From Chiloscyllium plagiosum (Eukaryota), in NCBI RefSeq assembly GCF_004010195.1, contig NW_025214719.1, positions 8,991 through 45,404 of the forward strand: a DNA stretch of 36,414 nt. Direction: 5' to 3'. Below the pieces are notes generated by a model. That model was not told where the DNA came from, ran no database searches, and saw only the letters and a program-made list of their open reading frames with translations. Shown one piece after another: positions 200 through 31,250 of the stretch (the stretch's first letter is position 1; the number at the start of each line of letters is the position of its first letter). The translations under genes were made by a program, and so were the position numbers.

Positions 200-533
200 A
201 ACACCAGCAATAGTGATAATAGGTTAGTAGCACACCGTCCACCCCGCCCAGAAAAATCACAAGCACTGCTGATATCCGATATGGTAGAAATTCCTAATAG
301 GGCGAAATCTTGAAAAGACTCAAGGAAACTCTCCTCTCCATTGTTGTAATGTTCCAATCCACTATTCTCAGGTTCAGATCTGTCCTCTCTCTGTCTACAC
401 AGCTGTTGATCTCTGTTACTGTTGGAGCTGATGCATCTGCTACTACAGTGGGATAGCGCACTGAATGAAGCCCCTCACCAATAGGAGAGGGAAACCCTCC
501 AGTGACACAGTTACATTGCATGGAGACTGACAT
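200..533 (-). pseudogene. Pseudogenised first exon of a GPR139-like GPCR (paralog of 30397-30763)
   Basis: ORF 294-533 (MSVSMQCNCVTGGFPSP...DWNITTMERR) aligns with the N-terminus of ORF 30077-30763. A TAG at 294-296 is followed by a frameshift, then Y*PIITIAGV (TAA at 224-226) where the paralog has YYPVLAIVGV. The GTAAGT donor is absent. Confidence 0.75.
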
Positions 534-1015
534 TAATCACAGTCACTGAGCAACAGTCCCAGCTTTCAATACAGCACATTCAGTTCACAATATGACTGGA
601 CTGGACTACATGTTGGCATTGCTGGCTATTGGTCAAATCTCCCATCACCAATTGCTCTAGTGAAGGTAGTTGTGAGGGAGAATGATGGATGTTATCTTTT
701 CATAGGCTACATGATTCTGCTTTGTTGTCCGTTTACAATGCTGTAACCATCTCTCCCCAAATCCATCCACCTCCCAAAAGAATCACAATCAGGATGTTAT
801 TACTGTGCTGTTCTCTCCTCCACGGGAACAAACGCTAGCGAACAAACTGTCACTGGGCACAGTTGCCCTGAACATAGATAGGAAGTGAAGACTTCTCTGA
901 AAGTTCCTCTCATTGCTCTAAAAAGTCAACTTTGGAACTTCCATAGAGAATATGCTTCAGTAATTAATTTATACAAATTGACAAACTTCTAAGTGCAGTT
1001 TTATTTGCTGCAAAG
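534..1015 (-). promoter_or_regulatory. Upstream region of the pseudo-exon, homologous to 30764-31250; contains a CCAAT motif
   Basis: GCTGGCTATTGGTCAAATCTCCCATCACCAATTGCTCTAGTGAAG (621-665) is close to 30857-30901. ATTGG at 628-632 reads CCAAT on the minus strand. Function is inferred from position and conservation only. Confidence 0.4.
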
Positions 1016-1369
1016 CAGTATTGTTTTTTACACATTTTGGCCTCAGTCCAAAACCAAAAATGATAATTACAATGAACTTAATCATTAAGGTTTATGAATT
1101 AATGAGTCAGGTTCGAATGAACGTGACATTGGCTACGAGATAAGGCAGAATGGGGGCAGTGGCTGTGGAGACAGCATGGGGAGTACAATGATAGTCCCCA
1201 GTCATCATCACTCTTTCTGACAGACAGAATTAAATCTAATGCACAACAGGGAAACAGCCAACATTTGGGAAATGTAATGCTGAATGACAATGTGATCTGA
1301 ACAGGATAATTTTAAATGTGACGAAATGAGTAATATTTTATATACACACCATTTAATCTTTGGGTATAC

Positions 1370-1510
1370 AGATTGAGTAAGGTCACAGGACCTGAAACAT
1401 TAACTTTGATTTCTCTTCACGATACTGCCAGACCTGCTGAGCTTGGCCTCTAAGTTCTGTTTTTCTTTTTGTTTTAGATTGATCATATTGTTCATATCTG
1501 GCAGGATACT
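1370..1510 (+). mobile_element. Degenerate PLE terminal-repeat (pLTR) fragment
   Basis: GGTCACAGGACCTGAAACATTAACTTTGATTTCTCTTCACGATACTGCCAGACCTGCTGAG resembles the pLTR seen at 1910-2010 and 11701-11793. Confidence 0.55.
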
Positions 1511-1834
1511 TACAATTAAAAGCAGACACTAATAACAAAATGTGAAGAGCTAAGGGGACAATACAGGAGACGTTCAGCAGAGATATAGTCATTCCAAGCT
1601 GGAAGAGACAATGGGCTGAGTTTCCCCCACTTTTGCTGTAAATAATTCTATGATATGTAATCAAAGCCTTTAGAGAGGGGGTAGACACGCTAATTCAATG
1701 AAGGATATAGAGTGCTCCACCATCAATAATCTATTCCTAATATCTCATGAAATTTCAGCTGGCTCTGAAATGTCTTTTCAAACAAAGTGGAGTTCCTGAG
1801 ATTTACAGGATATTCAGAAGAAATGCAAAGAGAA

Positions 1835-3313
1835 AATGGTGGAGAAACGCGACAGATGAGGAAGTATCTGCAGAGAGAAACAGAGTTGATATATCGAATA
1901 TGATGTGACACTGTTCTGAAAAAGTCATATTGGAATCAAAGGTTAATTCTGTGTATCTCTGCTCAGAGGGTGCCAGACCTGCTGAGTTTCCTTCATTCGA
2001 TTTCTTTTTCTTTCTGAACTGTGACAAATTGACTGATCTGAACGATATAAGCAAAGCTGCTATCTCAGTTGAATATCGAATATTTTGTTATGGACATTAA
2101 ATTAGAAATTACAAGTTCCTATGTTTCACAGGGCTCTCAATATCGATGACGTATTGCATTGTGAGACAAAACCATTGTGATGCACTGCCTTTTGCATAGG
2201 TACATCTTGGATATTCCGTGAAGTGGTCACCCAGTCTACCTTTAGTTTCCCCAGTGTAGGGCAGACCACAATGTGAGCAGCGATTATAGCAGACCGGATT
2301 GTGGGAAATGTTTTTAGGATGCTGCTTCACCTGGGAGGTATGTTTGGCCCCTTCATTATTGAGGGGGGAATAGGTAAATGGGAAATGTAACATCTCTGGC
2401 AGGAGAAAGTGAAGTGGACTTGTGGTGGGGGTAGCGGAGGTGGGGGTGTGGAGGTATTGGGAGTGAATAACGAGCGGACCTGGGTGTCCTGGAGGAAATG
2501 ATCCTTCAGAATACGGAAAAGGGAGAGGACGGAAACATGTGTCGAGTGTGGCATCTCGCTGGAGGTGGGGGAAATGAGGACTGATGGTTCTCTGCATGTG
2601 TATGCTGGTGAGATGGTAGTTAAGGACAAGGGGAACTCTAACGCTGTTGCAAGAGGCTGAAGGTAGAAGTGCAGGAGATGGATCTGAACTGGTTGATGGC
2701 CCTGTCGATAACAATGCTGGGGAATTCTCGGGTGAGGAAGAAAGTGGACATTTCAGAGGCCACGTTTTTGTAGTTGACATCATCAGAAGCAATGCGGTGG
2801 AGACGGAGGAACTGAGAGACTTAAATGGAGTCTTTGCAGGAAACAGGGAGTGAGGATGTATACTCCAGGTAGCTGTGGGAGTTGGTGGGTTCATACTGGA
2901 TAACAGTGACCGGCATATCCCTAGAAATAGAAGCAGAGATGTCGAGGAAAGGAAGGGAGGAGTCAGAGGTAGATCAGGTGAAAGTAAGGGAGGGGTGCAA
3001 TTTGGAAACGATGAACTTTTCTAATTTTGGACAAGAGAGAGGAGCAGCAGCGTTGATATAATCCAAGTATCGGAGAAAGAGTTATGGATGGGGGCTGGAA
3101 TAGAACTGGAACAAGGAATGGTCTACGTACCCCATGAAGGAACAGATATAACTTGGGCCCACGTGTGTATCCATGCACCTCCTGTGCATGGCAGAAGCAG
3201 GCTGAAGCAATGGGTCTGCCCAGGCCGTTCTGTTTGTGGATTTTCAGGAGGAGATAAAAGCGATCTCTGCTATGAGAGGACCATCATCTTCGGGACTGTT
3301 CGGTGGGGGTGAG

Positions 3314-3348
<35 letters not shown>

Positions 3349-3719: not shown

Positions 3720-4438
3720 NNNNNNNNNNNNNNNNNNNNNNNNNNNNNNNNNNNNNNNNNNNNNNNNNNNNNNNNNNNNNNNNNNNNNNNNNNNNNNNNN
3801 NNNNNNNNNNNNNNNNNNNNNNNNNNNNNNNNNNNNNNNNNNNNNNNNNNNNNNNNNNNNNNNNNNNNNNNNNNNNNNNNNNNNNNNNNNNNNNNNNNNN
3901 NNNNNNNNNNNNNNNNNNNNNNNNNNNNNNNNNNNNNNNNNNNNNNNNNNNNNNNNNNNNNNNNNNNNNNNNNNNNNNNNNNNNNNNNNNNNNNNNNNNN
4001 NNNNNNNNNNNNNNNNNNNNNNNNNNNNNNNNNNNNNNNNNNNNNNNNNNNNNNNNNNNNNNNNNNNNNNNNNNNNNNNNNNNNNNNNNNNNNNNNNNNN
4101 NNNNNNNNNNNNNNNNNNNNNNNNNNNNNNNNNNNNNNNNNNNNNNNNNNNNNNNNNNNNNNNNNNNNNNNNNNNNNNNNNNNNNNNNNNNNNNNNNNNN
4201 NNNNNNNNNNNNNNNNNNNNNNNNNNNNNNNNNNNNNNNNNNNNNNNNNNNNNNNNNNNNNNNNNNNNNNNNNNNNNNNNNNNNNNNNNNNNNNNNNNNN
4301 NNNNNNNNNNNNNNNNNNNNNNNNNNNNNNNNNNNNNNNNNNNNNNNNNNNNNNNNNNNNNNNNNNNNNNNNNNNNNNNNNNNNNNNNNNNNNNNNNNNN
4401 NNNNNNNNNNNNNNNNNNNNNNNNNNNNNNNNNNNNNN
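3720..4438. other. Assembly gap (719 N)
   Basis: Run of N. Confidence 1.
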
Positions 4439-4588
4439 TCTTAAGGAAGAAACAGATTTCGGCCGTAACACAGGTGTCACAGACACAACAACTACAATAG
4501 GAACAGGAAAGGACGACATTGTCCACATATAACCAAATTCAGCATGTAACCCTGTCAAGAACCATGAAATATAGTGATACGGAAACAT

Positions 4589-6208
4589 GAAATGCAAAGA
4601 GAAAATGGTGGAGAAACGCGACAGATGAGGAAGTATCTGCAGAGAGAAACAGAGTTGATATATCGAATATGATGTGACACTGTTCTGAAAAAGTCATATT
4701 GGAATCAAAGGTTAATTCTGTGTATCTCTGCTCAGAGGGTGCCAGACTTGCTGGGTTTCCTTCATTCGATTTCTTTTTCTTTCTGAACTGTGACAAATTG
4801 ACTGATCTGAACGATATAAGTAAAGCTGCTATCTCAGATGAATATCGAATCATTTGTTATGGACATTAAATGAAAAATTACAAAGTTCCTATGTTTCACA
4901 CGGCTCTAAATATCGATGACGTATTGCATTGTGAGACAAAACCATTGTGATGCACTGCCTTTTGCATAGGTACATCTTGGATATTCCGTGAAGTGGTCAC
5001 CCAGTTTACCTTTAGTTTCCCCAGTGTAGGGCAGACCACAATGTGAGCAGCGACTATAGCAGACCGGATTGTGGGAAATGTTTTTAGGATGCTGCTTCAC
5101 CTGGGAGGTATGTTTGGTCCCTTGGATATTGAGGGGGGAATAGGTAAATGGGAAATGTAACACCTCCGGCAGGGGAAAGTGAAGTGGACTTGTGGTGGGG
5201 GTGGGGGAGGTGGGGCTGTGGAGGTATTGGGAGTGATTAACGAGCGGACCAGGGTGTCTTGGAGGAAATGATCCTTCAGAAGGCGGAAAAGGGAGAGGAG
5301 GGAAACATGTCTCTAGTGTGGCATCTCGCAGGAGGTCGGGGAAATGAGGACTGATGGTTCTCTGCATGTATATGCTGGTGAGATGGTAGTTAAGGACAAG
5401 GGGAACTCTAACGCTGTTGCAGGAGGGAGGAAAGAAGCTGAAGTTAGAAGTGCAGGAGATGGATCAGAACTGGTTGAGGGCCCTGTCGATAACAATGCTG
5501 GGGAATTCTTGGGTGAGGATGAAGGTGGACATTTCAGAGGCGACATTTTTGTAGTTGACATCATCAGAAGCAATGCGGTGGAGACGGTGGACCTGAGAGA
5601 ATTAATTGGAGTCTTTGCAGGAAACAGGGAGTGAGGATGTATACCTCAGGTAGCTGTGGGAGTTGGTGGGTTCATACTGGATAACAGTGACCGGCCTATC
5701 CCTAGAAATAGAAGCAGAGATGTCGAGGAAAGGAAGGGAGGAGTCAGAGGTAGATCAGGTGAAAGTAAGGGAGGGGTGCAATTTGGAAACGATGAACTTT
5801 TCTAATTTTGGACACGAGAGAGGAGCAGCAGCGTTGATATAATCTACGTATCGGGGGGTGGCGAGTGGGTGGGAATCTCCAGATAAAGTGTGGTCAGACC
5901 TAGTTAATAAAATAACCTGATGTGCCATGTGCGGTCATGGACAAGTAGGTGATATGTGGAGGTATCTGAGAGCTGGCACTCAGCCTCAGAAATGTAGAGG
6001 TGAGTTCACCAGACTACAGCAGCACCTCCCTTATCGGCACAGGCTGAATAACGTAGTCAGGGTTGTATCGAAGCATACAGCGTACAGTCTGTTCAGAGGG
6101 CTTTAGGTTTGATAGGGTGAGGTGGATACAGAGAATTTAAGACAACCAAACTCACATGGAGCGTTCTCAAGGAACAGATTGAGTTCAAGTAAACGCCAGA
6201 GGAATGGG
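4589..6208. repeat. Tandem duplication, copy B
   Basis: Collinear with 1820-3719. At about 5855 it lacks the segment holding the GT microsatellite. Confidence 0.95.
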
Positions 6209-8269: not shown

Positions 8270-9225
8270 ATAACAAGAGACTGGAATTCTGAATTCTTCT
8301 TCTGTGAATAAAATCTGGAGAACAGGAAGGAAATCAAGGATTTTGTGTGATATTCATAAATGATGATGGTGAGAATGTGGAAGATGGATGACAGTGGAAT
8401 GATAACTAATGTTGGGGATGACACAAAGATTAAATGGGTGCTTCAAAGTGAGGAGGAAAGGATGAGGCTACAGGACGAGATAAACAGACGGTTTCTATAA
8501 CCAGATCAATTGCCATTGAAGTTTAACACGACAAATGTAAGATGATGCACATCTGAATTAACAAGACAAGTGAGTGTTCAAACTGTGAAAAGCAAGGGCT
8601 AAATTTGCTCCTTTTTACTTTGCAAAAGGGAAGGTTGAGTAGTGAACCTGGTACAGATGAACAAAAACATAAGGGGTATGGATAGGATGAACAGACAGCA
8701 ACTGTTTCCCTTACTCGAAGTGTCAATAACAAAGGGACACATACTTAAAGTGAAAGACAGGTGATTGAGAGAGGATTTGTGGAGTCTGTATTGAACTGAG
8801 AGGGTGGCACAGACATATATTATAAAATGCATACCATGTGGAAATAGGCCCTTCAGCCCAACAAATCCACACTGACCCCCAAAGAGTAACCCACCCAAAC
8901 ACGTTCCTCCTATTTTTACCCCTGACTTATGTACCTAACCTACACATCCCTGAACATATTCGGCAATTTAGCATGGCCAATTCACTTAACCTGCGTACCT
9001 TTGGATTGTGGGAGGAAACTGGAGTAGACACGGGGAGAATGTGCAAAACCATACAGGCAGTCACCCGAGGCTGGAATCAAACCTGGCTCCCCAGCGCTCT
9101 AAGGCAGGTGTGCTAACCACTAAGCCCCCGTTCTGCCCCTGGTAACATGTGTCTAGAATGCATTTCCTTGGCGGGTGATTGATCAGATAATCTCACAAAC
9201 CTATAGAAAGTTCTTTGGACATGCA
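8270..9225 (+). mobile_element. CR1 LINE 3' RT fragment interrupted by an HE1 SINE
   Basis: ATATTCATAAATGATG...GATGACACAAAGATT (IFIND / DDTKI motifs), AAATGTAAGATGATGCAC (KCKMMH) and CR1-type 3' sequence GTCAATAACAAAGGGACACATACTTAAAGTG. Confidence 0.65.
8830..9138 (-). mobile_element. HE1-type V-SINE
   Basis: Reverse complement of the 16759-17052 element: AGGCCCTTCAGCCCAACAA...GGCAATTTAGCATGGCCAATTCAC...TGCTAACCAC. Confidence 0.85.
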
Positions 9226-9269
9226 CTTGGTGGTGCAAACTCGCGTTTTCATTCAATTATTCTATGTGG

Positions 9270-9740: not shown

Positions 9741-10934
9741 GTTCCTGGAGCTGAACAGACAAAGATGTGAATTTATTGCGGTGCTCACAAGTATGAAAAA
9801 AAGTTGCAGAGCAGAAAAAGAATACTCTTATTAGTTGGCATTACAGCATCAAGGAATTCTAATTTCAAGGTTGTCAGCAAACGAGCTAGGAGTGAAACAA
9901 GGAAAAAATTCTATATTTAGGGAGTTGTTACGAATTGGAATTGACTGGCTGGGAAAGTTGTGGATGAATATTCAAAAGAGAACTGGATATATATTTGGAA
10001 ATTATGAATTTAACGGGAAACAAAGAGAGGGCTGGCAAATGGGAGGTGCTTGGGAGACATTTTTGGAGCTGATGCATAAACGGCCAATGGCCTCCTCCTG
10101 TGCTTTACAGTTGTACTCAATCATGTACCAGCTGTGAATAAAAGTCAGTATCCAATTATTTCACAGTGTTAATGCTCGCAAATATCTGCTTATTTGATGC
10201 AGCATAAGCATTTAAAATGCAAGTATTGCAAGGTCAGCTTCATTATGAAATCTAATTATTAATCATAACATGAATATTTTACATGTTGTATTCCAATTAC
10301 TCAAACAAATATATCATTGCTTTGTCACAAAGTTCTTTGGAAGGCTCGGATTTTTCATTGACACGATATTATGTTCGTTGCTTTTGTTTTCACTCTCAAC
10401 ATTTCATATTAAACATCATTCATTTTAAAAATTGGACGTTTTAAAATTATTGTTCACCAAACTTTGATAACACAAATAATTTATTTAGTTTAATATTCCC
10501 AGTCCATTTTGAATATTTCCATTTTTAAATGCTGGCAAATAGCTGAAGATCGTACATTTCAGTGAGAAATTAAACTGATTGCTTATATATGAATGTATAA
10601 GAATGCTAATTCTATTTGTATATTTAATCGTTTGCTCATTCTGAACATGTAATCATTCAGAAGCCAACATTGCTTTGAATCCTGACATTGAATATCTAAT
10701 TCTGATCAGCACAAGAGTTATGTTGTTTCTTCGATAAAATAAAATGTACATGCTTTATTTCTGTATTAGAAAATCTTGACAGGAGTTTATATTTTAGTTC
10801 CATAAATATAGAATCAACACAATTGATTTAAGCGATTATAGTTCAGTTGAATGATTATCGTTCACATCTTATTTTTTGCCCAATTCATGAAATATAGCAA
10901 ACATCCGATTAATGTTCGGGTCAGTAAACTCAAT

Positions 10935-11792
10935 GGAGGAGAAAGTGAGGTCTGCAGATGCTGGAGATCAGAGATGGAAATGTGTTGCTGGAAAAAAATA
11001 AAAATAAAAATTGCGGTGGAGTCGAAGGAATTGGGAGAATGGGATGGCGTTTTTACAGGGGGCAGGATGGGAGGAGGTGTAGTCCAGGTAGCTGTGGGAG
11101 TCGGTTGGTTTGTAGTAGATGTCCGTGTTGATTCGGTCGCCTGAGATAGAAACAGAAAGGTCTAGGAAGGGGAGGGAGGAGCCCGAGACTGTCCAGGTGA
11201 ATTTGAGGTCACGGTGGAAGGTGTTAGTGTAGTGGATGAACTCTTCAACCCCCTCGTGGGAGCACGAGGCGGCGCCGATACAGTCATCGATGTAGCGGAG
11301 GAAAAGGTGGGGGGTGGGGCCAGTGTAGGTGCGGAAGATGGATTGTTCCACATACCCTACGAAGAGGCAGGCATAGCTGGGGCCCATGCGGGTGCCCATG
11401 GCTACTCCTTTCGTTTGGAGGAAGTGGGAGGATTGGAAAGAGAAGTTGTTCAGGGTGAGGACCAGTTCAGTCAGTCGAAGGAGGGTGTCTGTGGAAGGGT
11501 ACTGGTCGGTACGGCGATTAATGTTCGGGTCAGTAAACTCAATGGAGGAGAAAATGAGGTCTGCAGATGCTGGAGATCAGAGATGGAAATGTGTTGCTGG
11601 AACAAAAAAAATAAAAATTGCGGCGGAGTCGAAAGAATTGGGAGAATGGGATGGCGTTTTTATAGGGGGCAGGATGGGAGGAGGTGTAGGTGCAGGGAGG
11701 ATTCCTGAAGAAGGGCTAATGCCCGAAACGTCGATTCTCCTGTTCCCTAGATGCTGCCTGACCTGCTGCGCTTTTCCAGCAACACATTTCCA
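10935..11792 (-). mobile_element. Young, rearranged Neptune-clade PLE insertion with an uninterrupted RT core fragment
   Basis: Open frame 11517 to about 11012: TLLRLTELVLTLNNFSF...GVAMGTRMGPSYACLFVG...RYIDDC...LPFLD...YKPTDSHSYLDYTSSHP. pLTR pieces at both ends. Flanked by TCAGTAAACTCAAT (10921-10934, 11793-11806). Confidence 0.92.
11692..11743 (+). ncRNA. Minimal type I hammerhead ribozyme motif in the PLE pLTR
   Basis: CTGAAGA (11705-11711), extra A, stem II GGGC/TAAT/GCCC, GAAA, palindromic stem III ACGT, GTC cleavage triplet (11730-11732). This is the architecture known for PLE hammerheads. Confidence 0.8.
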
Positions 11793-12644
11793 TCAGTAAA
11801 CTCAATACCTTGCAATGTGCTACGCTGAAAATTGCTTCCAATAGATCTGAAATCATTTACAGTGTTATGGGACCTCACCGCGGCCTGTGATACAGAGAGA
11901 CTCAGTGGCCTGTTCCAAAATCTGTGCATTCAGCTTCTAACCTGGTTCAGGGCAGTCAGTCAAACATTACTTCAAAACAAATAATTTGGAATCAACCTTG
12001 GGTAGGGGGAGAACCCGCCAACAGACTATCATTGGTCTCAGTGTAGATACAAATGTTGTCCAGGTTAAATACTAATGGTTGACCAGCAACCAAGTTTTAA
12101 AATTGATCTTCAGTCAGATCCTGGCCCTGAGACCAGACGTGTTGACATGGAGAGCAAGAATCACACCATACAAGTTACCAATGGTGATGAAATCTGACCA
12201 GCCTCCCAGACTCCATACATCTGCACCACGGATCAGACATGGGTGAAGACGTTATCAAGTTGACAATCTATTGCAGTGCCTTGTGTTTCACAAAGAAACC
12301 TCTAAAAACATATCCAATAAATGTCACCGTCACATTCTCCAGTATCAAAATAAATTTGTACATCTCTGTGAATGGTCAGAGATTACTACATGGATCACAT
12401 CGTAGAATGTATGCGAAGTAACCAACAGCAAACGGCAAGCCAAGAATAACATTAATAACTGAACTTGGCGGATTCTGTCTGGTCTAAGTAACCACACATA
12501 TTATACTGGCTTTCAGGTGACTGTAACAATGTACACCATAACTGGAGGCTTTGTCCTTACACCCCTCCAAAGCTTCCTGATCTCACACACATCACTCCCT
12601 CATACATTCAACAATTGATGAGAGTCCACAAGCTGTCTGAAACT

Positions 12645-14125
12645 GGAAACATTGAACAGTGCAACACAGTGCAGGCCTTTCGACCTTTTATCCTACTCTA
12701 AGTTCAGACTAACCTACATACTTTTCATCATACTATCATTCATGTGCCTATCCAATTAACTATCCCTAAATATAGCTGACTTTAGTACAACTGCTGGCTA
12801 TTCATTGCACACACACACCTCTCTGCGGAAAGAAACTAAATCTGACATCTTCCCAAACCTTTTTTCAATTACCTTAAAATCATCTCCCCTCGAGAGCCAT
12901 TTCCTCCCTTGGAGAAAGTCTCAGGCTGTCCACTCTATCTATGCCTCTCATCATCTTGAACACCCTGTCAAGTCACTTACCAATGAGGAAAACACCCTAG
13001 CTCCCTCAACTTTTCTTTGTAAAACATGCCCTCCAGTCCAGGCAGCATCTTGAAAAATCTCCTCAGCAAGCTCACCACATTTTCCACATCTTTCTTATAA
13101 CGAGGCAATCAGAATTGATCGCAATATTCTAAGTGTGGTCTCACCAGGGCTTCATAGAGTTGCAGCATAAACTCGTAGCTCTTAAACTCAATCCCTCGGC
13201 TAATGACCACATCAACTCCGTCTTAACAACCTTATAAACCTGGGTAGCAACTTTGTGGGAGCTAGGTCATGAACCATATGATCCCCCTGTTCCTCCACAA
13301 CGCAAGAATCCTGCCATTAACCCTGTATTCTGCATTCTAATTCGACCTTCCAAAATCAATCGGATCTCACTTTTCCATATTGCACACCACCTGCCACTTA
13401 GCAGCCGAGTCCTGCATCCTGTCAATGTCCTGTTGCAAACTACAGCACCCCTCCACACTATCGACAATTCCACCAATTTGTGTTACATCATCAAACTTAC
13501 GAACCTGCCCTTCCACTTCGTCATCCAAGTCATTTATCAAAATCACAAACACAGAGGTCCCAGAACCGATCCTTACAGAACACCACTGCTCGCCTAGTTC
13601 CACACTGAATACTTCCCATTTACCACCACCCTCTGTCTTCTATGGGCTAGCCAATTCTGTATCCAGACAGATAGGACTTCCTGTATGCCATGCCTCCTTA
13701 CTTTCTGAATGAAACTACCACGGGGAAGTTTATCAAACACTTTGTTAAAATCCATGCACTCCACACTCACTGTTCTACCTTCTTCAGTGTGCTAAATCCC
13801 ATCCTCAAAGAATCCAATAAGAGTTGTGAGGTATGACATGCCCCTCACAAAGCCATGCTGACTATTTATAGTCAAACCATCGTTTTTCAGAATCCTCTCC
13901 AATACTTTGCCCAATACTGATGTAAGACTGACTGGTCTGCCATTCTCAGGACAATCCCTCTTTCCTTGCCTGAACAAGGGAGTAACATTTGCCACTCTCC
14001 AATTATCCGACGCTACCCCAATGCAGAGTGAAGACGCAAAGACCATCGCCAAAGGCACAGAAATCTCTTCCCTCTCTTCCTGTAGTAACCTAGTGTGTTT
14101 CCCGTTTGGCCGCGTGATTTATCTA
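12645..14125 (-). mobile_element. 5'-truncated CR1 (HER1-like) LINE, RT domain to 3' tail
   Basis: NWRVANVTPLFRQGKRDCPENGRPVSLTSVLGKVLERI...SQHGFVRG (13792-14058) and FVILINDLDDEVEGQVRKFDDVTQIGG...LQQDIDRM...KWQ (13367-13603). Confidence 0.9.
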
Positions 14126-14299
14126 TCCTTATGTTTGTACATCAATCAGTCTGTATTTCATCTCAACTTGTTTACTCCCTGTCCAACCAACTGATTGACT
14201 GCTTTCCATTTCAGGGCTCTGTACAGTGCTGCCTTCCTGAGTAAGTATGGTTCCCCATATCCTGTATATTATAGAATGGAAAACATGGGAACGGCAGAT

Positions 14300-15860: not shown

Positions 15861-16758
15861 ATTGGAAGTTTATGCAAGATAGAGTGGAGAAGTCACCAGA
15901 TTAAAAGCCACCAAGTCTCACATCAGTGAGAGGGAAACAATTGGAGACAATTCGGAGGGCTGTTGAGGCTGGATCATTAAATATCTTCAAGGCTGAGACA
16001 GACAGATTTTTTACAAGTGTTACGGGGAAATCGCAGGATAGTTGAATGGGGGATTATCAAAATAGGTATAAACTAATCGAAGGAAAAGCAGAGTCAGTGA
16101 GCGGATCGACATATTGTTGCCCCTTTGTCTAATGGTGTTCTTTTCCAATAGCACTGTATTCACAAGAACATCAAATTGTCTTGCTATGGTGTGAGACACA
16201 GTTTGGAATGCTATCAAAGGATTCAAGGAATTCATAAACGCAATACTAATAGACAGAAAGTACCAGAAAACTGCAACAACACGGATTACCTATGGGGGGA
16301 GGATTTGCATCGACACAGTCACCACTACCAGAAGGAAGACCTCAGCAAGACACTGTACAAGGCCAAGCAGTGACCTGAACTGGGGAGCAGATAGTCAGGG
16401 GCCAGTTGTCAAGGAGTGCTGAAAGCCCAAACACTACATCACTGTAGTGCCTTCTTCCTTTCCTGACCAAAACTAAATGTGGAGGGATAGAGAGACATGC
16501 CATTGTAGCAGAGTAAGCAATAAGGCTTTGACACGAGAGGCTTCGGACAGCTGCAGCTCAGCAAAAATTACTAGTAAACCCAAATAACGTCCTTTTCACT
16601 TTATTGTTACATCAGTCGAGATGGCATTTAGGGCAGCCGCACGCTCCTCTTGTGGGATGTGGTAACTCAGAGAGATTTCTGACGGCCCTGATCGCTATAC
16701 GTGTGGGCATTGCACCCAGCTTCAGCTCCTGGGAGAACGTGATAGGGAGCTACGCTGC

Positions 16759-17052
16759 GCGGCACGGTGGCTCAGTGGTTAGCACTGCTGCCTCAGAGGA
16801 CCAGAGTTCAAATCCTGCCTTGGGCAACTGCCTGTGTGGAGTTTGCATATTCTCCCCCTGCCTGGATGGGTTTCGTCTGTGTGCTGTGGTCTCCTCCCAC
16901 AGTCCAAATATGTGCATGTTAGGTGAATTGGTCATGCTAAATTGCCCGTAGTGTTGGGTGTAGGGGGGTGGGTCTGTGTGGGCTGCTCTTCAGTTGGTCG
17001 GTGTGGACATGTTGGGCCGAAGGGCCTGTTTACACACTGTAGGTAATCTAAT
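16759..17052 (+). mobile_element. HE1-type V-SINE (tRNA-derived) inserted in CR1 ORF1
   Basis: A box TGGCTCAGTGG (16768-16778), B box GAGTTCAAATCC (16804-16815), V-domain TGTGTGGAGTTTGCATATTCTCCCC, LINE-like tail TTGGGCCGAAGGGCCTGTTT. Confidence 0.9.
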
Positions 17053-19349
17053 TTAGGATGCACTCAGTGGCATCCGAGATACTGAGAACTTCATAGATAA
17101 GTGCTTTAGTGTGGTTGTCACACCCAAGACACGCCCCTAGTTATGTTTCTTTAAAGACTGCAATATTCCAGTCCAACGTTCATCGCCCTGAGGTCATTAG
17201 CCTTACCTGTCAGCCCTGTTGCATTTAAATAAACACGATTTAATCCAACAGGCTTACCTTGCTTCCTGTCATGTTCCAGGCGAGAGTAATTGGGCGACAA
17301 ACAGGAATAGCAAACGGAATAGGCAGGGAGTGCAGGAATTCCCTGTGGCCATTCCTCTCGAAAACAGGTAGACCGTTTTGGATTGTTGGGGGCGATGACC
17401 TTTCAGAGGAAAGCAGCAGTAGCCAGGTTGGTCGTACTACCACTGGCTCTGGGGCACAACGGGAAAGGGTAAACATAAACAGGACCTAAAAGATAGGAGG
17501 GTCGATTGTTAGAGGGACAGATCGGAGATTCTGTGGTCACAAACGGGAATCCTGGATGGTGGGTTACCTCCCAGCTGCTAGGGTCCAGGATGTCTCCAAG
17601 TGGCTGCAGAACATTCTCTAGAGGGAGGGGCAGAAGCCAGAAATCATTTTGCACGTTAGCACAAATGATACCCGTAGAAACAGGGACGAGGTCCTGCAGT
17701 GTGATTATAGAGAGCTTGGAGAAACATTTAACAAAAAACCTTGACAGTGGTAATTCCTGAGAGGGAGATTACCGTCCGAGACATGCACTGGAGCGAACAC
17801 CAATACCTTGGCGGTCAGTTTTTCTAGTGTTACAAGGGTGGGTTTAAACTGGATTGGCAGGGGGTGGTGTCCTCAAGAGGAGGGAGGCAGGTGCAAGGCT
17901 GGAAGGTGATACAGTAATCAGAAATAGTAAGGTTAGGCTGGAAAACGACAGAGAGAAAGTACTGCCATTTGGATTAAATTGCATCTATTTCAATGCAAGA
18001 AGACCTACAGGTAAGGCCGATGTACTCAGGGCTTCAATAGGTAGGTGGGAAAGTTATATTATAGCCATTACACAAACATGGCTAAGTGATGGATAGGACT
18101 TACAGCTTAATGTGCCAGGATACAGGTGCTTTAGGCGAGACAGAGATGGTGGAAGGAGGGGAGGGAGAGTTGCATTTCTGATTAAGGGGAGTACAACAGC
18201 ATTAATCAGAGATAAAATAATTATGGATCACCCAATCAGGCTTTGTGGGTAGAGGTAGGAAATAGGAAGGTGATGGTGAGGTGATTGGGGATGTAATATA
18301 GGCCCCCAAATAATAGGGGATTTTCATTTTTCTAATACAGACTGGAACGGCCAGAGCGTTAAGGAATTTGATGAGATAGACTCTGTTAAATGCGTCAGGA
18401 AAGTTTCCTCATGCAGCATATAGAGTGTCCTACTCAGGAAGGGGCAAAACTCGAAATTTTCTTAGGGCAGAGTTAATAGTGGGGGAGCACTTTGGGACCA
18501 GTAACCATAGTTCTATTAATTTTCAAATAGGTATGGAGAGGGACGAAACTGGTGCACAGGTTCATGTTCGAACTTGGGACGTGGCTCAGGTACAGGCAGC
18601 TCGGATCAAGGGAATCCCTGGAGGTATATAAAAGATACAGGATTTTACTGAAGAAGGAAATCAGTGGGGCGAAAAAGGGGTAACAAAGAACCTTGGCTGA
18701 GAAGATAAGGATGAATCCAAAAATATACCTTAAATATATTAAAAGAAAAAAGCAATGATTGGAGGGAAAATAGGACCCCTCGAAGATTAATGCAGACAAG
18801 TATGTGTGGAACTTTAAGAGATGAGTGATGTCTTCATCGAATATTTCTACTCTATGTTTACCGTGGAGAAAGACATGTTGACTTGAGAACTTGAGGAAGT
18901 TATTGGTGATATCTTAGGGACGATCCATATCATAGTAGATGAGATCTTGGACGTACTGGAAAGAAGATAAATCTCATGGTCCTTACCCGATATATCCAAG
19001 AACACCTCAAGGTGCTCCAGAAGAATTTGCGGGGAACCTGGCTTATAATGTTGATCATCATTAACCACAGGTCACGTCCCGGAAAACTGGAGGATAGCAA
19101 ATGGTGTGCCCCTATTCAAGAAGAATTGAACAAAAAAAGCTTTGGAACTACAGACCAGTAGGTTTAACATCCGTGGTCGGTAAGTTACTTGAGAAGGTTC
19201 TGAGGGATAAGATGTACATGTATTTAGAAAGAGAGGCTTTGATTAGGAATAGTAAGTGTGGTTTTGTGCGAAGAGGTTTGTGCCTGACAATTTTCTTAAA
19301 ATAATTGGATGATGTACCCAGGAAGATTGACTTGGGTGGGGCAGTAGAT

Positions 19350-21457: not shown

Positions 21458-22107
21458 TGTTATGGACTAGGCTAGACCACTCAAAACACTTTTAAGCAGG
21501 CAGCCCAGAGCATACCTTTGCAATTTCTTTCGGTAAGTGTATAATGAAAATTACCCTGAGTAATTTAGCTGGGGTGACTAGTAGATTTTAAAACAGACAA
21601 AAACTTTATTCATAAAATTACACAATGAAACACAAAGAACAGAATAAAGGATCACGACAGAATTCAACCTATCTAACTAGACTTAATTATGCTATTCCGA
21701 ATATACACAGCTGTCCCAATAAGCAAACTCCCAATAAAAAACAATATAAATGGAACACATACTTCCAAGTTGAATTTGAAGGTCAGAAAAGAGAGAGAGT
21801 TTCCACACAGCTCCCAGTTGAACTTCCCAGTTCAAGACTCAACTCAAACTGCTCAGCTCAGCTCAGCTAGTTCAGCTAAAATAGCTCACCACTCTCCGTT
21901 CATTATACAGGTCACTTATAAAGCATTACCACTTTGGCCTGAAGTTTCATCTGTTTCCGTATAAACAAAAGGCCTCTGAAAATCCTTTTCATCTCTGTAC
22001 CAAACCAGACTGATCGGAGCTTGGCCCGTTTTATTGTACCTCTGAAACAAAATCAAAGACAGAGCCAAGGAACAGCTTTTAGACAAAAACTGACTTGCAT
22101 TGTGATG
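21458..22107 (-). repeat. 3' LTR (about 650 bp)
   Basis: On the + strand it runs TGTTATGGACTAGGCTAGACC...TTGTGATG. Direct repeat of 26970-27634 at roughly 85% identity. Confidence 0.93.
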
Positions 22108-22109
22108 GG

Positions 22110-22126
22110 TCTCTCTCCCCCCCACC
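22110..22126 (-). other. Polypurine tract
   Basis: GGTGGGGGGGAGAGAGA on the minus strand, 2 nt upstream of the 3' LTR. Confidence 0.85.
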
Positions 22127-22294
22127 ATAAAAAAGAACCATCAATGCTAAAAGGTGGCTGCATTTTTAACCCTTCAAACCCAATTAGTAGTCTCAAAACT
22201 GACAGATGCACTCTACTAACTGTAAACATTCAAACATGCACAAACCCATGCAAATTCAGGCCGCGGTATACCCACCACCGAACACCTCCGTATC

Positions 22295-25200
22295 TCATTC
22301 GAGTCTCAATAACTCATCAGCTTTCACATTTTCGCGACCTGCCACATGCACAATTGTCAGATTGAATGGCTGCAACAACAAGCTCCATCTAAACAGTCTG
22401 GCATTTTTGTCTTTATTTTTTTCCACAAATGTCAATGTGTTGTGATCAGTGTATACGATTGTATCAGACGCATTGCTGGTAATGTAAACACAGTTATGGT
22501 GTAATGCCAACACCAAGTTTAAAGTCTTTTGCTCCACGGTTGAACATTTCTGTTGATGAACGCTCCATTTCCCAAAATAATACCTGATGGGTCTTCCTAT
22601 TCCCTCATCATCCCCCTGCAGGAACACCGGACCGACACCCACATCTCTGGCAACGATAGCCACCTTGAAATTCTTCGTGTGATCTCGTGTAGCTAATTCT
22701 GGGAGCAGTGGCTAATATCGATTCTGTAAAATGCATTTTGACAGTCCTCTGTCCACTGAGAGTTCTTGCCCTTGACAATTCGGTGAGTGGAGCAGCCACA
22801 CTGCTTAAAGTTTGGCACAAACTTTCAGTAAAATCCAGTCAATCCCAGGAACCGTAGTATTACATATTTCTTTTTGTAGACGGTGTGGAACATTCCCCAA
22901 CTACTTTCGTTTTTGTATCTCATGAGGCCATTGGGCATTGTCCAATAGCGTGACCCAGGAACGTGACTTGGGCTTTCTCAAATTCACTTTTAGCTAGGTT
23001 TACCAACAAGCCTGCCTTCTGAAGTCAATCAAACAAGTCTGATAAATGCTGTAAATGTTCCTTTCAGGAGTGGCTAAAAACCACCAGGTCATCAATGTAC
23101 ACCACATAGTTGGGTAATCCGGCATTGACCTTATTATCAGTCTCTGAAATGTGGCTGGATCGTTTTACACACCAAATGCCACAATTGTGAACTGATATAA
23201 TCCATTTGGTGTTATGAAAGCCGAAATTGCATTTACTCTCTCTGACAGAGGTCCTTGCCAGTAGCCTCTGAGCAGGTCCAGCTTAGAAATGTAAGTAGCC
23301 TCTCCCACTTTTTCGACACAGTTCTCTCAGCATGGAATTGGATATGCATCAGTCTTTGTAACGAAGTTGACTTTGTGATAATCCACACATGACCGTTGGG
23401 TGCCATCTGGCTTTGGCACCATGACTATACGTGAGGTCCAGTCATTGTAACTCACATCAATTATGCCATCTTGAGCATGCGCTCTATTCCTTCCGAACCT
23501 GTGCCAATTTTGGAGGGTCATGCCTATAAGGATGTTACTTAATCAGAACAGCATCTCCTGTGTCTAAATCATGCACAATTATGTTCGTACTTCCCAGTTT
23601 TTTTTCCGCATATCTCTCCACGAGATAGTAATAACTCTTTCAGGTCGCTTTGTTTTTCTTGTGGAAGGTAACTCAATAATTTATCCCAATTTTTGACAAC
23701 TTTCTCATTGTTTAATTTGATTTGAGGAATGTCCAATTCAGAATCCTCTGAACTTGGTTCTTCCTTCTGTGCTGTAATCATAAACACGTTCTGCTCTTGC
23801 TTTCCTTCCCTGGCAAAATACCTTTAGAGCATATTCACATGACACACTCTGTGAGATCTTATCCTCTCTGGAGTCCGTATCGAATAGTTCACCTCAGTCA
23901 ATATCTTCCCAATTTGATAAGGTACACTAAAACTTGCTTTTCAAGGCTCAATTTTTACTGGAAGGAACACCAATACTTTACTCCCCATTGCAAAATTGCC
24001 AATTTATGATTTTTGATCCACTTCCTGTTTCATTGTATATTGTGATTCTTTTAAATGCTGTCTACCCAACTCTCCAGCTCTATTTAATCGTTCCCTAAAA
24101 TTTGACACATCATCCAAATGGGTGGTCTCTGAATTCTGACTTATTAATTTCTTCTTAACCAATGGTAATGGTCCTTTTACTTTATGCCCACAAATTAATT
24201 CAAATAGACTGAATTTGGTCCATTCATTCCGTGCGTCCATGATCACAAATAGTTCAAAAGGAATTTCATTATCGCAATCATCTGGATAATCCTGACCGTA
24301 AACCCTCAACATGGTCTTCAGTGTTTGATGTCATCTCGCTCATGCTCCCTGTGATTCCGAATAGTATGCAGTAGATTTGAATTGCTTTATTCCCAAGTTA
24401 CCCATCATCTCCTTGAATAGTTCGGATGTGAGGTTTGATCTGTCTGGAGCTATATTGGTAGTCCGTACCTAGTAAAAAGAATAAGCATGTTTTCTACAAT
24501 TCTTTTAGCTGTGATGCTGCATAATGGGTCTGGCTCTGAAAATCTAGTCGACATATCCATTACTGTTAATAAATACTTATTCCCACTTGTTGTTTTAGGT
24601 AGGGGACTTACACAATCTATCAGGACTCTTGTGAAAGGTTCCTCAAATGCTGGAATAGGTATTAAAGTTGCAGGTTTTATTACATGTTTGAGACGTCTGG
24701 CAAAATTCAACCTCATCTTTATGTCATCCTGGCCAGTGAAAATATCTTTGAATTCCAGCCTGTAATTTCCGAACACCGAAATGATTTCCAAGTGGTAGCT
24801 CATGTGCCACTCGCAGCACCTCCTTTCTATACCCAACAGGCAAAACAATTTGATAAAATTTCTGTCCACGCATGATCTGCTTCAATGAGTGCTGATCTAC
24901 ATATCCGCATTAAGACATCATGTGTTAAGTAATGACATGCAGGAATGCATTAATTCTCTTTCTTGCTAAATGTCTTTTGATATGACTTTTGTAACTCCTC
25001 GTCATTCTGCTGTAATTCAATCTTAGCAGAGCTAAAAATACGTTCATGTTTCCATACTTGCTCCTTCTCTGTTCCACTTATATAGTCTGAAAGAAACTTT
25101 CGGATAACGTCAGTTTCCTTATCTGTGCCTTTATCTTGCTTCAACCTGCGCATTTGTGATCTTCTGATCACGCAATCAGGGAAAATTCCTGGATAAACAT

Positions 25201-26869
25201 TCTCCAGATCTTCAGTTTCCTGCATCTCCACTGGCTTTTCAACTCGAGTAGGCAGCACACCTACCAGTAAATCAGCTACATTATTTGCAAGGACACATTT
25301 TATTCCTGGAGCTGAGAGTTAGGGGTCCAGTACTCCGACCACACATGCTCACTCTTTTCTGGACTACCTAGCCTCACTTTACATAACTGAGCAGTTTTTG
25401 CCTGTTCCCAGCACATTTTCTGGCAATAGTCTCTCAAGAGTGCATAAAGCCTCACCCCTCAGCATTACAGACTGAAAATATCCTGTGTCAATTAATATTG
25501 GATCCTCCTTACCAATTACTCCTGGCCTATGTGAATCAACTTTACCCTTCCATGTAGATTTTTTTACGCAGATTTAGCACGTCCACTGATCATCTTGTAC
25601 ACTCTTAGGCAGTTGTCTAACTCCCCCTATGCTTTTTGTTACTCGTTCAACGAAACTTCCAGGCTTGTCTAGTTATCCTACATCTGGTTTTCTCCCAGCC
25701 CACCAACACTGTGATTTTGTGTGGCCCACTTTATTACAATGAAAACACCATAGTATTTTAACTTCTTTGTCCCCCTCAAGGTTTTCTTTATTACTGTGGT
25801 AAATTATCCTGACGTTCGACACTGTGATCTACCTTTCCCTCCGCACGTGAGGATATCTCTATGCTCCAACTTCTGTCCCACAGAGAGCAGAACTGGTTCT
25901 GAAAAACAAACCAAGTTTATGTTCCAGTTCATAATCATCAGCAATTTCAGCAGCCAAACTTGCTGTTTACACTCTCTGCTATCCCACCTGAGTTTGCACT
26001 ACTTCAGGTAGTGAATTTTTGAATTCCTCCAAATACTAACCTCTCTAAGGGCATTATAGATTTGCTTCAATTCTAATGCTCTTATCCAACTATCGAAATT
26101 AGTCTGTTTGTTCCTTACAAATTCAGTGTAGGTTTGACCAGGATCCTCATTAGATTCCTGAAAGGTTGCATATGCAGACGACATTTTTTAAATCTCCTCA
26201 TACTCCCAGATACCTCCTCTGATAGGGATGTGAATACCTCACCAGCCCTACCTACAAGTTTCGTTTGGATCAACAAAACACATATTGCCTCTGGCCGCTG
26301 CATTTGTTCAACCAACTTTTCAAATGAGATGAAAAGGGCGTCACATTCTTCTCATCAAATTGAGGCAATGCTTGAACATACTCAAACAAATTCTCACGAG
26401 GCTTCTGACTACGGGGGCCTTGTTCATCCTCACTCTCTTCCTTTCTAAGCCCACCCTCAGCCGTTATCTCCGGCCTTTTACACTGACTTTCCTTTTTAAG
26501 TGTCAGTTTTTGCCGTTCAAATGCTCTCTCTTTCTCTCTCCCCTGCTGCTCTCTCTTTTCCCTCCTCTTCTGCATTTTATCGTAAGTCAAGTGTTTCATT
26601 TTGGCTGCCCTTTCCTTACCTCTCGACGCTAACTCAAGATGTTTCATTTGCAACTGAATTCTTGCCATCTCTATGGATTCTGATGGTTTATCCAGCAAGT
26701 TTAATTGATGAGCTACTGCTGTAATTATCTCTCCTCTCCTCACAGAAGCAGTCCGTTCCAATTCCAGCTTCTCTGCTAATTCTTGCAAATTGGTCTTATT
26801 CACTTTTCGTAAAATTTCCAAAGTCACTGCATGCACACCCAGGAAATGTTTGGCGACTGAAATAGTCAT
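22295..26869 (-). pseudogene. Fragmented gag-pol polyprotein of the Gypsy element
   Basis: Gag ATG at 26869 (MTISVAKHFLG). SCAN-like segment PGQTYTEFVRNKQTNFDSWI (25999-26184). INT PFTRVLIDCVSPLPKTTSGNKYLLTVMD. RT VMVPKPDGTQRSCVDYHKVN. RH VYTDHNTL...RWSLLLQPFNLTIVHVAGRENVKAD. Many frameshifts and stops. Confidence 0.9.
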
Positions 26870-26947
26870 TACTATTCGAAGCTTTGTCAACCCAATCAAA
26901 CTAATACCCGAACTAAAGACACTAGCACCTCCCACTCGCTGTTGAAA

Positions 26948-26966
26948 ATCCAGCAATGAGCCCCCA
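26948..26966 (-). other. Primer binding site, tRNA-Pro-like
   Basis: TGGGGGCTCATTGCTGGAT, 3 nt downstream of the 5' LTR. The canonical tRNA-Pro PBS is TGGGGGCTCGTCCGGGAT. Confidence 0.75.
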
Positions 26967-26969
26967 GTC

Positions 26970-27634
26970 TGTTATGGACGAGGCTAGACCACTCAAAACA
27001 TTCTTAAGCAAGCAGCCCAGAGCATAACTTTGCAGTTTATTTCGGTCATTATCCAATGAATATTATCCGGAGTAATTTAGCTAGGGTGACTACTAAATTT
27101 TAAATCAGACAAGAACGTTATTCACAAAGTTACACAATGAAACACAAAGAACAGAATAAAGAACCCCTACAGAATTCAACCTATCCAGCTTGACTTAATT
27201 ATGCTATTCCAAATACACACAATAGTCCCAATAATCAAACTTCCTTGAGAAAACGTTATAATGGAACGCATGTTTCCAGGTTGAAACTGAAGGGCAGAAA
27301 AGAGAGAGAGTTTCCACACAGCTCCCAGTTGAACGTCCTAGTTCAAGACTCAACTGAAAACTGCTCAGCTCAACTCAACTCAGCTAGCTCAGCTAAAAGA
27401 GCTGCCAACTCCCCGTTCATTATACAGGTCACTTCTAAAGCATGACCACTTTGGCCTGTAGTTCATCTGTTTACATATGTATAGAAGGCCTCTGAAAATC
27501 CCTTGCATGTCTGTACCAAACCAGACTGATCGTAGCCTGGCCCCGTTTTATTAACCCTCTGAAAAACATCAAGGACAGTGTCTACTTGAGCCAATGAACA
27601 GCTTTTAGCCAAAAAGAAGGATTGGTTTGTGACA
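26970..27634 (-). repeat. 5' LTR (665 bp)
   Basis: On the + strand it runs TGTTATGGACGAGGCTAGACC...TTTGTGACA, with TG...CA termini. Confidence 0.93.
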
Positions 27635-27995: not shown

Positions 27996-28349
27996 AGACA
28001 CATATCATGGAAAACATGTTCTATCTAATGCTATCCGTGTTTTGTTTTGGAAATAATGAGTGTTGATTGATAACACTCCAGTGTTAATGCAATCACGTTT
28101 TATTCTTTTTGTAGCGTTACAGATTAAACACTCATTCCCTTCACATTCTCCTCATGGTACCATCACCGCAGGGATTAATCTGGTGAAACTCCAATACACC
28201 GTCTCTCTGTGGCAAGGAGATCATTGATTATAAATGAAAGAAAATACTGTCTCAAGTACATTCCACAACTGCAGGACGGTGTCTTCACTCTTCTACTTTA
28301 ATCATTTTGTAATGAACGCTCCTCCTCATTTATTGTGCTGATTATTTGC

Positions 28350-28460
28350 TGAGTCATAGAGTCATAGAGATGTACAGCATGGAAACAGATCCTTCGGTCC
28401 GACCCGTCCATGCCGACCAGATATCCCAACCCAATCTAGTCCCACCTGCCAGTACCCGAC
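28350..28460 (-). mobile_element. CR1/HER1 3'-tail fragment
   Basis: GAGTCATAGAGTCATAGAGATGTACAGCATGGAAACAGATCCTTCGGTCC...CTAGTCCCACCTGCCAG. Confidence 0.8.
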
Positions 28461-28660
28461 TGCTCTGTATGAATTCTGTTAGTGCCTCATGATCAAGGAC
28501 ATCCAGCTTCTTTTCACCAAGAGCACTTCCCATCATCTCTTCTTCTCATAAATACAAAATGAGAAGGATGGCATTTTTTGCCAATCATTTATTTGCCTTA
28601 TGAAGCAAAGTCACACCAACAACAACATCACTGTTGCCCTTGGAGTTGATTGGAGATACT

Positions 28661-29128
28661 GAGGAGGCGATGATCTAGCTGTATTATCTCTGATAATGAA
28701 TCCAGGGATCCAGGTAATGACCCAGACACCGGATTTGCTTTCCACCTTGGCAAATGTTGGAAATTGAATTCAATAAAATATCAGGAATTAAGGATCAAAT
28801 GAAACAATGAAACCATTGTCGATTGTCCTACCTGGCACCCTCCTGCCCTTCAGGAAAGGAAATCTACCATCTACAGCAGGTCGGGCTGATATGTACCTCC
28901 ACAGCAATGTGGTTAACTCTCAGTTGCAGTTTGAAATAGCCAAGCCAGCCACTCAGTTATATCAGTCACTTCAAAGCCTCAGAGAAAAGAAATCGCATGG
29001 ACCTCAGCACTGACTACTTACAGCCCACGCACTGCAGTGGGTCAGGAAGGCAGCTCACCAAACTCTTCTCAAGGGCAACGAGGAAAGGGAATTAAATACT
29101 GGACCAGCATCCCATTAATGAATAAAAG
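28661..29128 (+). mobile_element. SacSINE1-like Deu-domain SINE (tRNA head, L2-type tail)
   Basis: Head GGAGGCGATGATCTAGCTGTATTATC; core GAATTCAATAAAA...ATGAAACCATTGTCGATTGTC...CCACAGCAATGTGGTTAACTCT; tail CTGCAGTGGGTCAGGAAGGCAGCTCACC...TTCTCAAGGGCAA...AATGAATAAAA. Confidence 0.75.
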
Positions 29129-29414
29129 ACGATGATCACACCCAGGGAAGAGAGAAAAACAGACATAAATAACTTCAAACAGGGACTTTGACACATACCT
29201 TACATAGTCATGATTATCAGTAATATGGGAAGAGGAAAAACATAAGTAATGTTTAATTTTTTTTTATTTCCATCCCAGCTGATCATCACCAATCTCTTTG
29301 TTAGCTTCTTTCTCTCTATCTCTCTCTTTTTCTATCTATTCAACTCAGTCCTTCTCCCCTTCATAACAGATGTTGGGTGCCACCAACATCAATCACACGA
29401 TTTCCCAACTGTGT

Positions 29415-29560
29415 TCACTTCTGATGCATGGTCATTGGAATCGAATTGCCAATTCTATTTTTCTCTCAAACCGAGGGGGCTGCTAAATCTGTTCAGTTTG
29501 TCTGGCACTTTCTCGTTCTTTATTAGCTCTGAGCTGTTGCATCATTCTTTGCTTTATTTA
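29415..29560 (+). mobile_element. Decayed PLE pLTR fragment
   Basis: TTCTGATGCATGGTCATTGG...GCTGCTAAATCTGTTCAGTTTGTCTGGCACTTTCT; homologous to 34125-34260. Confidence 0.5.
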
Positions 29561-29584
29561 ACCTTTAATTTTATTATTACTTGA

Positions 29585-29950
29585 AATGTCTGCATCGCTG
29601 ACAGGGGCAGCATTTGTTGACCTAACCAAATGTCATTTACTGCGAGGTCATTCTTTCAGGCAGTACAGAACCAAGCACATTCCTGCGGGTCTCACATCAA
29701 TCTTAAGCCAGACCAGATAATAACGCACGATCTATTTACCAAAGGACATCAGTGAAATAGACAAACGTATAGACAAAATGCTGGAGGTGTTATGGATGTT
29801 ATTAGTAAAACTTGTTTTTTTTTTCCAATTCCTGTCTTGTGTATTTACTTTCTGACATCGTCCGTGGTAGGATGTGGATTAGTGTCTTTCTGTGTAATAA
29901 CATATGCATCAGAATTACATTTCTTCCGACATTACTGCTCTGAGAGTGTT
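29585..29950 (-). mobile_element. SacSINE1-like Deu-SINE, decayed
   Basis: Reverse-orientation match to 28661-29128 (GCAGCATTTGTTGACC...AAAGGACATCAGTGAA...CCGTGGTAGGATG). Confidence 0.6.
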
Positions 29951-30396
29951 CCTGTCATTAAGTTATTTTAGAGACAAGAACAAAGTTGTGATCGGAATAT
30001 TTGCAACTCAAAGAGTGCTTAGAAGAGAGGTGGAACCATAACGTCTGAATTTTACCAAAGCATAGATAATGGATAATTAAGCTACAGCATTGAAACCAAG
30101 ATGGTGACTGGGCATATAATTTAGCTGGTAGTGGATAGGTTTTGTAGTGGGCAGAATACCGAGACATAATGAAATCAGGGAAGAAATGTACTTCGGTATT
30201 GTGAATAGTCTCGTTCTCAGATGTTTGTGAGGGCGGGGGTGTTGGCGGTTCTGAAATCTGTGGGAAATGAATTGAATTTGCATTTGAAACTGAAGATAAT
30301 AGTTTCCGTCTTTGTCAAATATAGATAAAAGAAATAGCAAAGAAGTTCGCCATGGTTGAAGAGATAAATAAATGGATAGAGATGAAGAACACTTAC

Positions 30397-30763
30397 CAGG
30401 AACACCAACAATAGCGAGGACAGGATAGTAACCCGCCTGGATAATCATCAGGGCACCATATATCCGAAATGATAATGTTGACCGAGGCCAGGAAAAATAG
30501 AAAAGTCCCTCGGATAAACTCCTGTCCATTGTTGCAGCATTCCAGTCTAATGTTCGCAGATTCTGATCCATGAATGGATCATTCCAGACTATACTACGAT
30601 GTTTAAATCTCCTTTTTCTGTCTCTGCAGCTGCTGATCCCTTTGAGCATTGGAGTTGATGCATCTGCTGCTACAATGGCATAAACCATTGCAAGAGGCCC
30701 CTTACTAAAAGGAGACGGAAAACATCCAGTGACACAACTAGGATCCATGGAGACTGGCATCAA
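30397..30763 (-). CDS. First coding exon of a GPR139/GPR142-like class A orphan GPCR (N-terminus plus first half of TM1); true start may be 30763, 30571 or 30529
   Basis: The open frame ends IIQAGYYPVLAIVGVP, the TM1 signature of this family (YYxxLxxxGxP-x-N). It is followed immediately by a consensus phase-1 donor CCTG|GTAAGT (intron starts at 30396). The ORF-track extension to 30077 is intron read-through. Confidence 0.8.
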
Positions 30764-31250
30764 TCACAGTCACTGAACAAACAGCTCCATTTAACCCCTT
30801 TCAGTATGGTTCCTTCAGTTCACAAAAACTACTGGACTGGATTGAATGTTGGCACCGCTGGCTATTGATCACATCTCCCATCACCCATTGCTCTCGTGAA
30901 GTTGGTAGTGAGGGAGAATGATGCATTGTTTCTTATCGCAGGCTAGATGATTCTGCTGCGTTGTCCGTTTGCAATACTGTAACTGGCTGAACGTCCCACC
31001 ACCACCTCCCTCAAAAACCACAATCTACATGCTGTTACCGTGCAGATCTCTTCTCGACTAGAATAGGCACCAACCAATAAATTTACAGTGGATATGTTTG
31101 CACTCCAAAACATAGGAAATGTGATTTGCCTTGGCATTCCTCTAATTGATCTAATAAGGCAATTTTGTATCTTCAACACTCAATGTGCTTCAGCATCTTT
31201 TTAAAATATAAACTCACAAACACCTTAACATACTTTATTAAGCACAAGTT
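30764..31250 (-). promoter_or_regulatory. Putative promoter region of the GPCR exon, conserved with 534-1015
   Basis: Paralog-conserved block 30815-30925, TATA-like TTAAAT at 30789-30794, TCAAT at the position where the paralog has CCAAT. Confidence 0.4.

Follow-up and report, generated by a model that had tools for sequence, protein, structure and literature searches.

The UGT1, GCNT2, UGT2A, and PCDH alpha and gamma clusters consist of tandem units, each a promoter with a first exon, that are joined to one conserved constant region; clusters of the UGT1/PCDH type hold from three to more than 12 variable exons, and pseudogene and relic variable exons are included among those of UGT1 (PMC1885805). 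Our literature search, which took in few subscription papers and supplements only in part, turned up no description of first-exon clusters among G-protein-coupled receptors (GPCRs) and no paper on the shark receptor family considered here. In human GPR139, from which that family takes its database name, the first exon is short and the intron long, about 40 kb. Here, we analyze a 36,414-nucleotide stretch of DNA from the shark Chiloscyllium plagiosum (RefSeq assembly GCF_004010195.1, contig NW_025214719.1, positions 8,991 to 45,404), referred to below as the window, that holds two first exons of GPR139-like receptors, copy A and copy B, with no recognizable second exon between them. The original prediction saw in this pair a possible array of variable first exons spliced to one seven-transmembrane (7TM) body. 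On balance, we favor a plainer account, in which copy B is the start of an ordinary two-exon gene that has a long intron and an exon 2 outside the assembled sequence and that lies beside a dead relic, copy A.

Like the clusters named above, the window has tandem same-strand units, each a putative promoter with a first exon, and a relic exon is among them. Unlike those clusters, it has no constant exon in view, and where the UGT1/PCDH type has at least two functional tandem first exons, it has one intact exon and one dead one. Nor is the would-be constant part constant: in place of a single region that has not been multiplied, the family has many second exons, and a search with one full relative as the query returned 829 clusters (154 to 490 amino acids), most of the 120 listed being named “probable G-protein coupled receptor 139.”

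The claim that the window holds two paralogous units in the same orientation was borne out by blastn, which aligned 22-960 with 30199-31193 on the same strand (67.3% identity over 1018 columns; E = 1e-95). Homologous sequence takes in exon 1 together with its upstream region and the first part of the intron, and the units extend over about 1-1017 (A) and 30180-31250 (B). A hidden Markov model (HMM) of exon 1, run over the whole window, found A and B only and no third copy within these 36 kb. A and B are old paralogs, 65 to 77% identical outside the exon. A core identity of 52% had suggested an exon diverging faster than its flanking sequence, but this figure proved to be an alignment effect and becomes 72% once gaps are allowed, and the idea was dropped. 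Neither copy has a 26-base satellite array upstream of it.

Copy B carries an intact coding exon 1 (30397-30571, minus strand; exon-1 HMM E = 2.6e-27) that encodes the N terminus and the first half of transmembrane helix 1 (TM1) of a shark GPR139-like receptor. A frame of 58 codons (30571-30398) is followed by one further base, 30397, the last of the exon, and then by a consensus phase 1 splice donor (30391-30396; CCTG/GTAAGT), so the exon is as intact, and its donor as perfect, as had been claimed. The family assignment and the exon boundary were also right: 116 of 123 family queries match copy B, and the boundary, which follows the residues GVP, is the same in the relatives. Copy B shares with shark GPR139-like models this boundary, a start of the type MDQNLRTxDWN, and the ending YYPxLAIVGVP, with an identity of up to 74% (over 57 amino acids) to its best match, a whale shark “probable GPR139” model (P0024). 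It differs from them in that the window has no exon 2, in that no close orthologue of B is on record, and in the absence of the usual N-glycosylation sequon, which is common without being universal in the family (117 of 128 first exons). On an exon-1 profile built from the relatives with B excluded, B scores 67.7 bits, above 19 of the 128 relatives and within their range. The exon alone matched no solved structure. Upstream of it, 30572-31250 (minus strand) is conserved with A at 65 to 77% and is, judging from that conservation, likely to comprise a promoter and 5' untranslated region; downstream, the start of the intron (30180-30396, minus strand) is 69 to 73% like the matching part of A.

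Two further observations concern the N terminus. In relatives P0006, P0047, and P0182, it is a 13- to 14-residue repeat with a glycosylation sequon, present in widely differing numbers of copies from one family member to the next; in B there is about one copy, without the sequon. In both copies, the sequence 5' of exon 1 is open in frame on the minus strand (30572-30760 in B and 384-533 in A), and four database models (P0009, P0011, P0015, and P0082) include this stretch, which may be a longer N terminus or just conserved 5' sequence.

Copy A is a dead exon 1 (196-383, minus strand; exon-1 HMM E = 2.8e-07) with four lesions: a TAG at 296-294, a net insertion of 13 bases near 233-247 that shifts the frame, a TAA at 226-224, and the loss, between two GTGTTC repeats at 199/198, of 13 bases and with them the donor. 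Its upstream region (384-1017, minus strand) aligns with that of B, and homology to B continues through the start of its intron (1-198, minus strand) to the edge of the window.

What, then, of the second exon? In this family, it runs to about 300 codons, from the rest of TM1 to TM7, and the claim that none lies between the two units held for the called bases of the window. The best of the tblastn matches from 99 exon-2 queries had an E value of 0.028 (0.052 when the window was reversed); no exon 2 came out of an HMM built from 93 exon-2 sequences, whose best E value was 0.047; and Pfam scans of 16 plus 98 frames, mostly drawn from 152 listed, contained no 7tm_1 domain. The sensitivity of the HMM was gauged with planted fragments, in which substitutions but no frameshifts were simulated: with 45% of residues randomized, 20 of 20 fragments of 60 amino acids and 15 of 20 of 40 amino acids were recovered, as were 14 of 20 fragments of 30 amino acids with 30% randomized. 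Several candidates were discarded. We read the weak tblastn matches at 16624-16899, 8532-8786, and 17538-17687 as chance, and 13388-13537 was rejected because it corresponds to part of a mobile element with which model P0018 begins. An open frame beside a scaffold gap (4442-4693) has no match in Pfam and none but weak ones in the Atlas (0.76), and it is not exon 2. One locus came out of a metagenome scan for DNA flanking exon 2, but its match is weak (41% over 35 amino acids), and it was not used.

An exon 2 could lie beyond the edge of the window or at a scaffold join between the units. A gap of 719 N (3720-4438) separates the contig with A from the contig with B, and the end of A's contig (1820-3719) is duplicated beyond it at 4589-6208 (95.9% and 97.2% identity, with one 291-base indel). 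Between the gap and this duplicate, the first 150 bases of B's contig (4439-4588) are unlike A's contig and the rest of the window, and it is here that the two contigs part. The flanks of the gap may be a real tandem duplication, structurally differing alleles, or wrongly joined paralogous tracts, and under either of the latter two, B's own molecule may carry other sequence left of 4439. Since the flanks are near-duplicates, 719 is also not a safe length, and the original argument that an exon 2 would be too long for the gap is thus a weak one. On the minus strand, 4439-4588 contains an acceptor-like site and an open frame that runs into the gap, with no family match.

In total, these observations are consistent with a two-exon gene of which the window shows only the front. 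Copy B keeps its frame and its donor next to the four lesions of A, its contig parts from that of A at 4588, and the family multiplies whole genes. The original prediction was right that B is either an orphan or a splice partner of something past the dead copy, but it missed a third option, in which the exon 2 of B is hidden at the join near 3720-4588; we regard this as rather unlikely. An exon 2 to the left of the window, which would be read through the dead A, is possible, if still on the unlikely side. On this account, B would have lost its own exon 2 by deletion and captured a body that was once A's; the subsequent death of A would complete a replacement of the first exon. We are doubtful of such a germline replacement at this locus, in which the upstream gene loses exon 2 by deletion, two first exons share a body for a short time, and one of the two dies. 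The intron of B would be at least 26 kb, swollen by mobile elements, a length that the intron of human GPR139 makes plausible. In either case, birth and death of entire genes, together with recombination within long introns, would leave each body with a single live first exon and not with a choice among cassettes.

Several points weigh against a living two-exon gene at B. No transcript connects B with an exon 2, annotated proteins do not exceed 74 to 76% identity to its exon, and so the partner of B has never been seen. The missing sequon may mark early decay. Many of the nearest matches of B are models that are broken or have exon 1 only, though several of these sit on very short contigs. For transcripts, we mapped two RNA read sets, one presumed RNA contig set, and one DNA contig set to 29300-31440, which gave 35, 0, 8, and 3291 records, respectively. 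No RNA junction at 30397 was listed, and none of the 35 RNA reads was at least 99% alike, their match being at the level of paralogs; with 2 to 6% of each run read, the RNA result carries no weight on expression. In a search of sequencing runs, none contained half of the words of the stretch, and none from RNA was listed as containing it. The DNA run, from a relative, has many closer copies of B, most of its 3291 mapped contigs being 85 to 95% alike.

The alternative that survives best makes B an orphan that either lost its exon 2 by deletion or arose when a gene was duplicated in its front part alone, with A the front of a separate pseudogene, both of them leftovers of a birth-and-death cluster, and no receptor made. 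We find this reading nearly as good as that of an ordinary two-exon gene, with a probability that falls short of even. It is consistent with the absence of an exon 2 from the 29 kb between the copies, with the lack in B of a sequon that nearly all relatives have, and with the frequency of broken and partial models in the family, which makes orphan exons plausible. An exon of 58 codons would also survive easily if the loss were recent: under neutral decay, we estimate the probability of B staying intact as 0.67 at 2% divergence, 0.47 at 4%, and 0.16 at 10%, and for this reason the intactness of B is only a mild sign of selection. Against an orphan, B is fully intact while its neighbor A has four lesions, and the join at 3720-4588 may hide an exon 2 on B's own molecule.

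The relatives bear on how such a locus could arise. All named receptor-family matches of the window are shark proteins, and relatives named “probable G-protein coupled receptor 139” (NCBI/UniRef) come from Rhincodon, Stegostoma, Heterodontus, Scyliorhinus, Heptranchias, and Chiloscyllium. They are models from databases, most of them probably predictions not backed by full-length cDNA, and the sample is biased to one query. The last 44 residues of B, searched against 1.84 billion representatives, gave 11 matches, three of which were set aside (P0005, a repeat protein, P0013, and P0014); seven of the eight fetched are family members, and three of the fetched matches carry the start of the 7TM body of B's nearest subfamily. 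In that exon-2 subfamily, 10 of 33 models lack a family exon 1 (five of them isoforms of one locus; P0026 was recounted by eye as real), suggesting that the two exons are loosely coupled in the relatives. All four fetched Chiloscyllium models of the subfamily (P0080, P0107, P0111, and P0126) are without a family exon 1, which may reflect long introns or orphan second exons in the genus.

We looked at the pairing of the two exons in 184 proteins, 138 of which have a recognizable exon 1 and at least 200 amino acids of exon 2 (141 with a looser motif). Among the 138, no pair that shares at least 97% identity in exon 2 falls below 86% in exon 1, and among the 141, identity in exon 1 is 95 to 100% in all seven pairs that reach 99.5% or more in exon 2. 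One pair combines an exon 2 of 95.7% identity with an exon 1 of 59%. Among these 138 to 141 proteins, there is no annotated case of different family first exons on one identical body, and the isoforms that do have a common body (P0184/P0185; P0093 and P0186-P0189) differ by first exons from outside the family.

Trees were built from 27 hand-picked relatives (19 that have a real exon 1 and come from the nearest exon-2 subfamily, plus eight others, within P0016-P0196). The exon-2 tree groups 21 rows at 99/100 support, and this group mixes two exon-1 types; the exon-1 tree (29 rows) groups 11 rows at 97/89, including a protein whose exon 2 falls outside the exon-2 clade. Approximately unbiased (AU) tests, run under a simple LG+G4 model and with only 48 columns for exon 1, reject the cross-imposed groups (P = 0.017, 0.002, 0.042, and 0.013 in the four tests). 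Could first exons have moved between bodies? The conflict hints at germline exon swapping, and we speculate that recombination in the long intron would explain the conflict, the orphan exons, and the state of the window. Gene conversion in exon 2 or mispaired gene models could explain the conflict equally well, which weakens our preferred reading, as does the fact that such models would miss rare cassette splicing.

It is very improbable that the window belongs to a true array in which several live cassettes, B among them, splice to a shared exon 2 left of the window with A as a relic: two same-strand units with no body between them, the relic variable exons of UGT1 clusters, an upstream region conserved between A and B, and exon-1 lineages that cross exon-2 lineages in the relatives all fit it, but the single live first exon in 36 kb, the multiplied body, the lack of any identical body with different family first exons, and the use of nonfamily first exons by body-sharing isoforms do not. 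Even splicing past A would give one live first exon per body, since a dead exon is no alternative cassette, and the inference of a cassette array is thus not supported.

The name GPR139 is a nearest-match label and not a statement of orthology. Among solved structures, a full-length relative matches only human GPR139 (PDB 7VUG and 9M42) at an E value of 1e-5 or below (E = 1.3e-06), and the match is remote. The residues E108, R244, and N271 bind agonist in GPR139 (PMC12775434). Counted from the alignment, relative P0024 has L, L, and F at these positions; the window offers no exon 2 of B for the comparison.

The remainder of the window is rich in repeats. The claim that most sequence between A and B comes from transposable elements could be checked only in part: without a repeat library, 13,638 of the 29,381 bases could be assigned to repeats. 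A decayed 6.2-kb long terminal repeat (LTR) retroelement (21458-27615, minus strand) has LTRs that are 87% alike and remnants of RNase H and of an integrase zinc finger, the order of which suggests the Gypsy type. Remnants of a reverse transcriptase, like that of a long interspersed nuclear element, lie on the minus strand at 10862-14194 (10862-11799 and 13238-14194), with weak RVT_1 matches below the curated cutoff. At 34959-36414, an inverted 88% duplicate (34959-35428/35942-36414) has a weak GIY-YIG match, like a Penelope-type element. A second gap, of 112 N (32195-32306), has a left end (31830-32194) that repeats as the start of the right side (32307-32670) at 96.7%, a pattern that has the usual look of two alleles placed end to end. 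Both N gaps are thus flanked by duplicates of 96 to 97%, and transversions exceed transitions in them (22/30, 4/6, and 5/7); the assembly likely places alleles or paralogous tracts end to end.

We read the window as nothing more unusual than leftovers from a cluster in which genes are born and die, seen in an assembly with gaps. Its value lies in what it points to: sharks have been described as GPCR-poor (PMC8455134), yet databases list hundreds of these receptors. An array, if there were one, would be a variable-first-exon GPCR array with the short first exon as the swappable part, of which we found no description. Should different bodies indeed acquire a reshuffled first exon, the exon for the outer part of the receptor, receptors would be diversified in a way that has not been reported.

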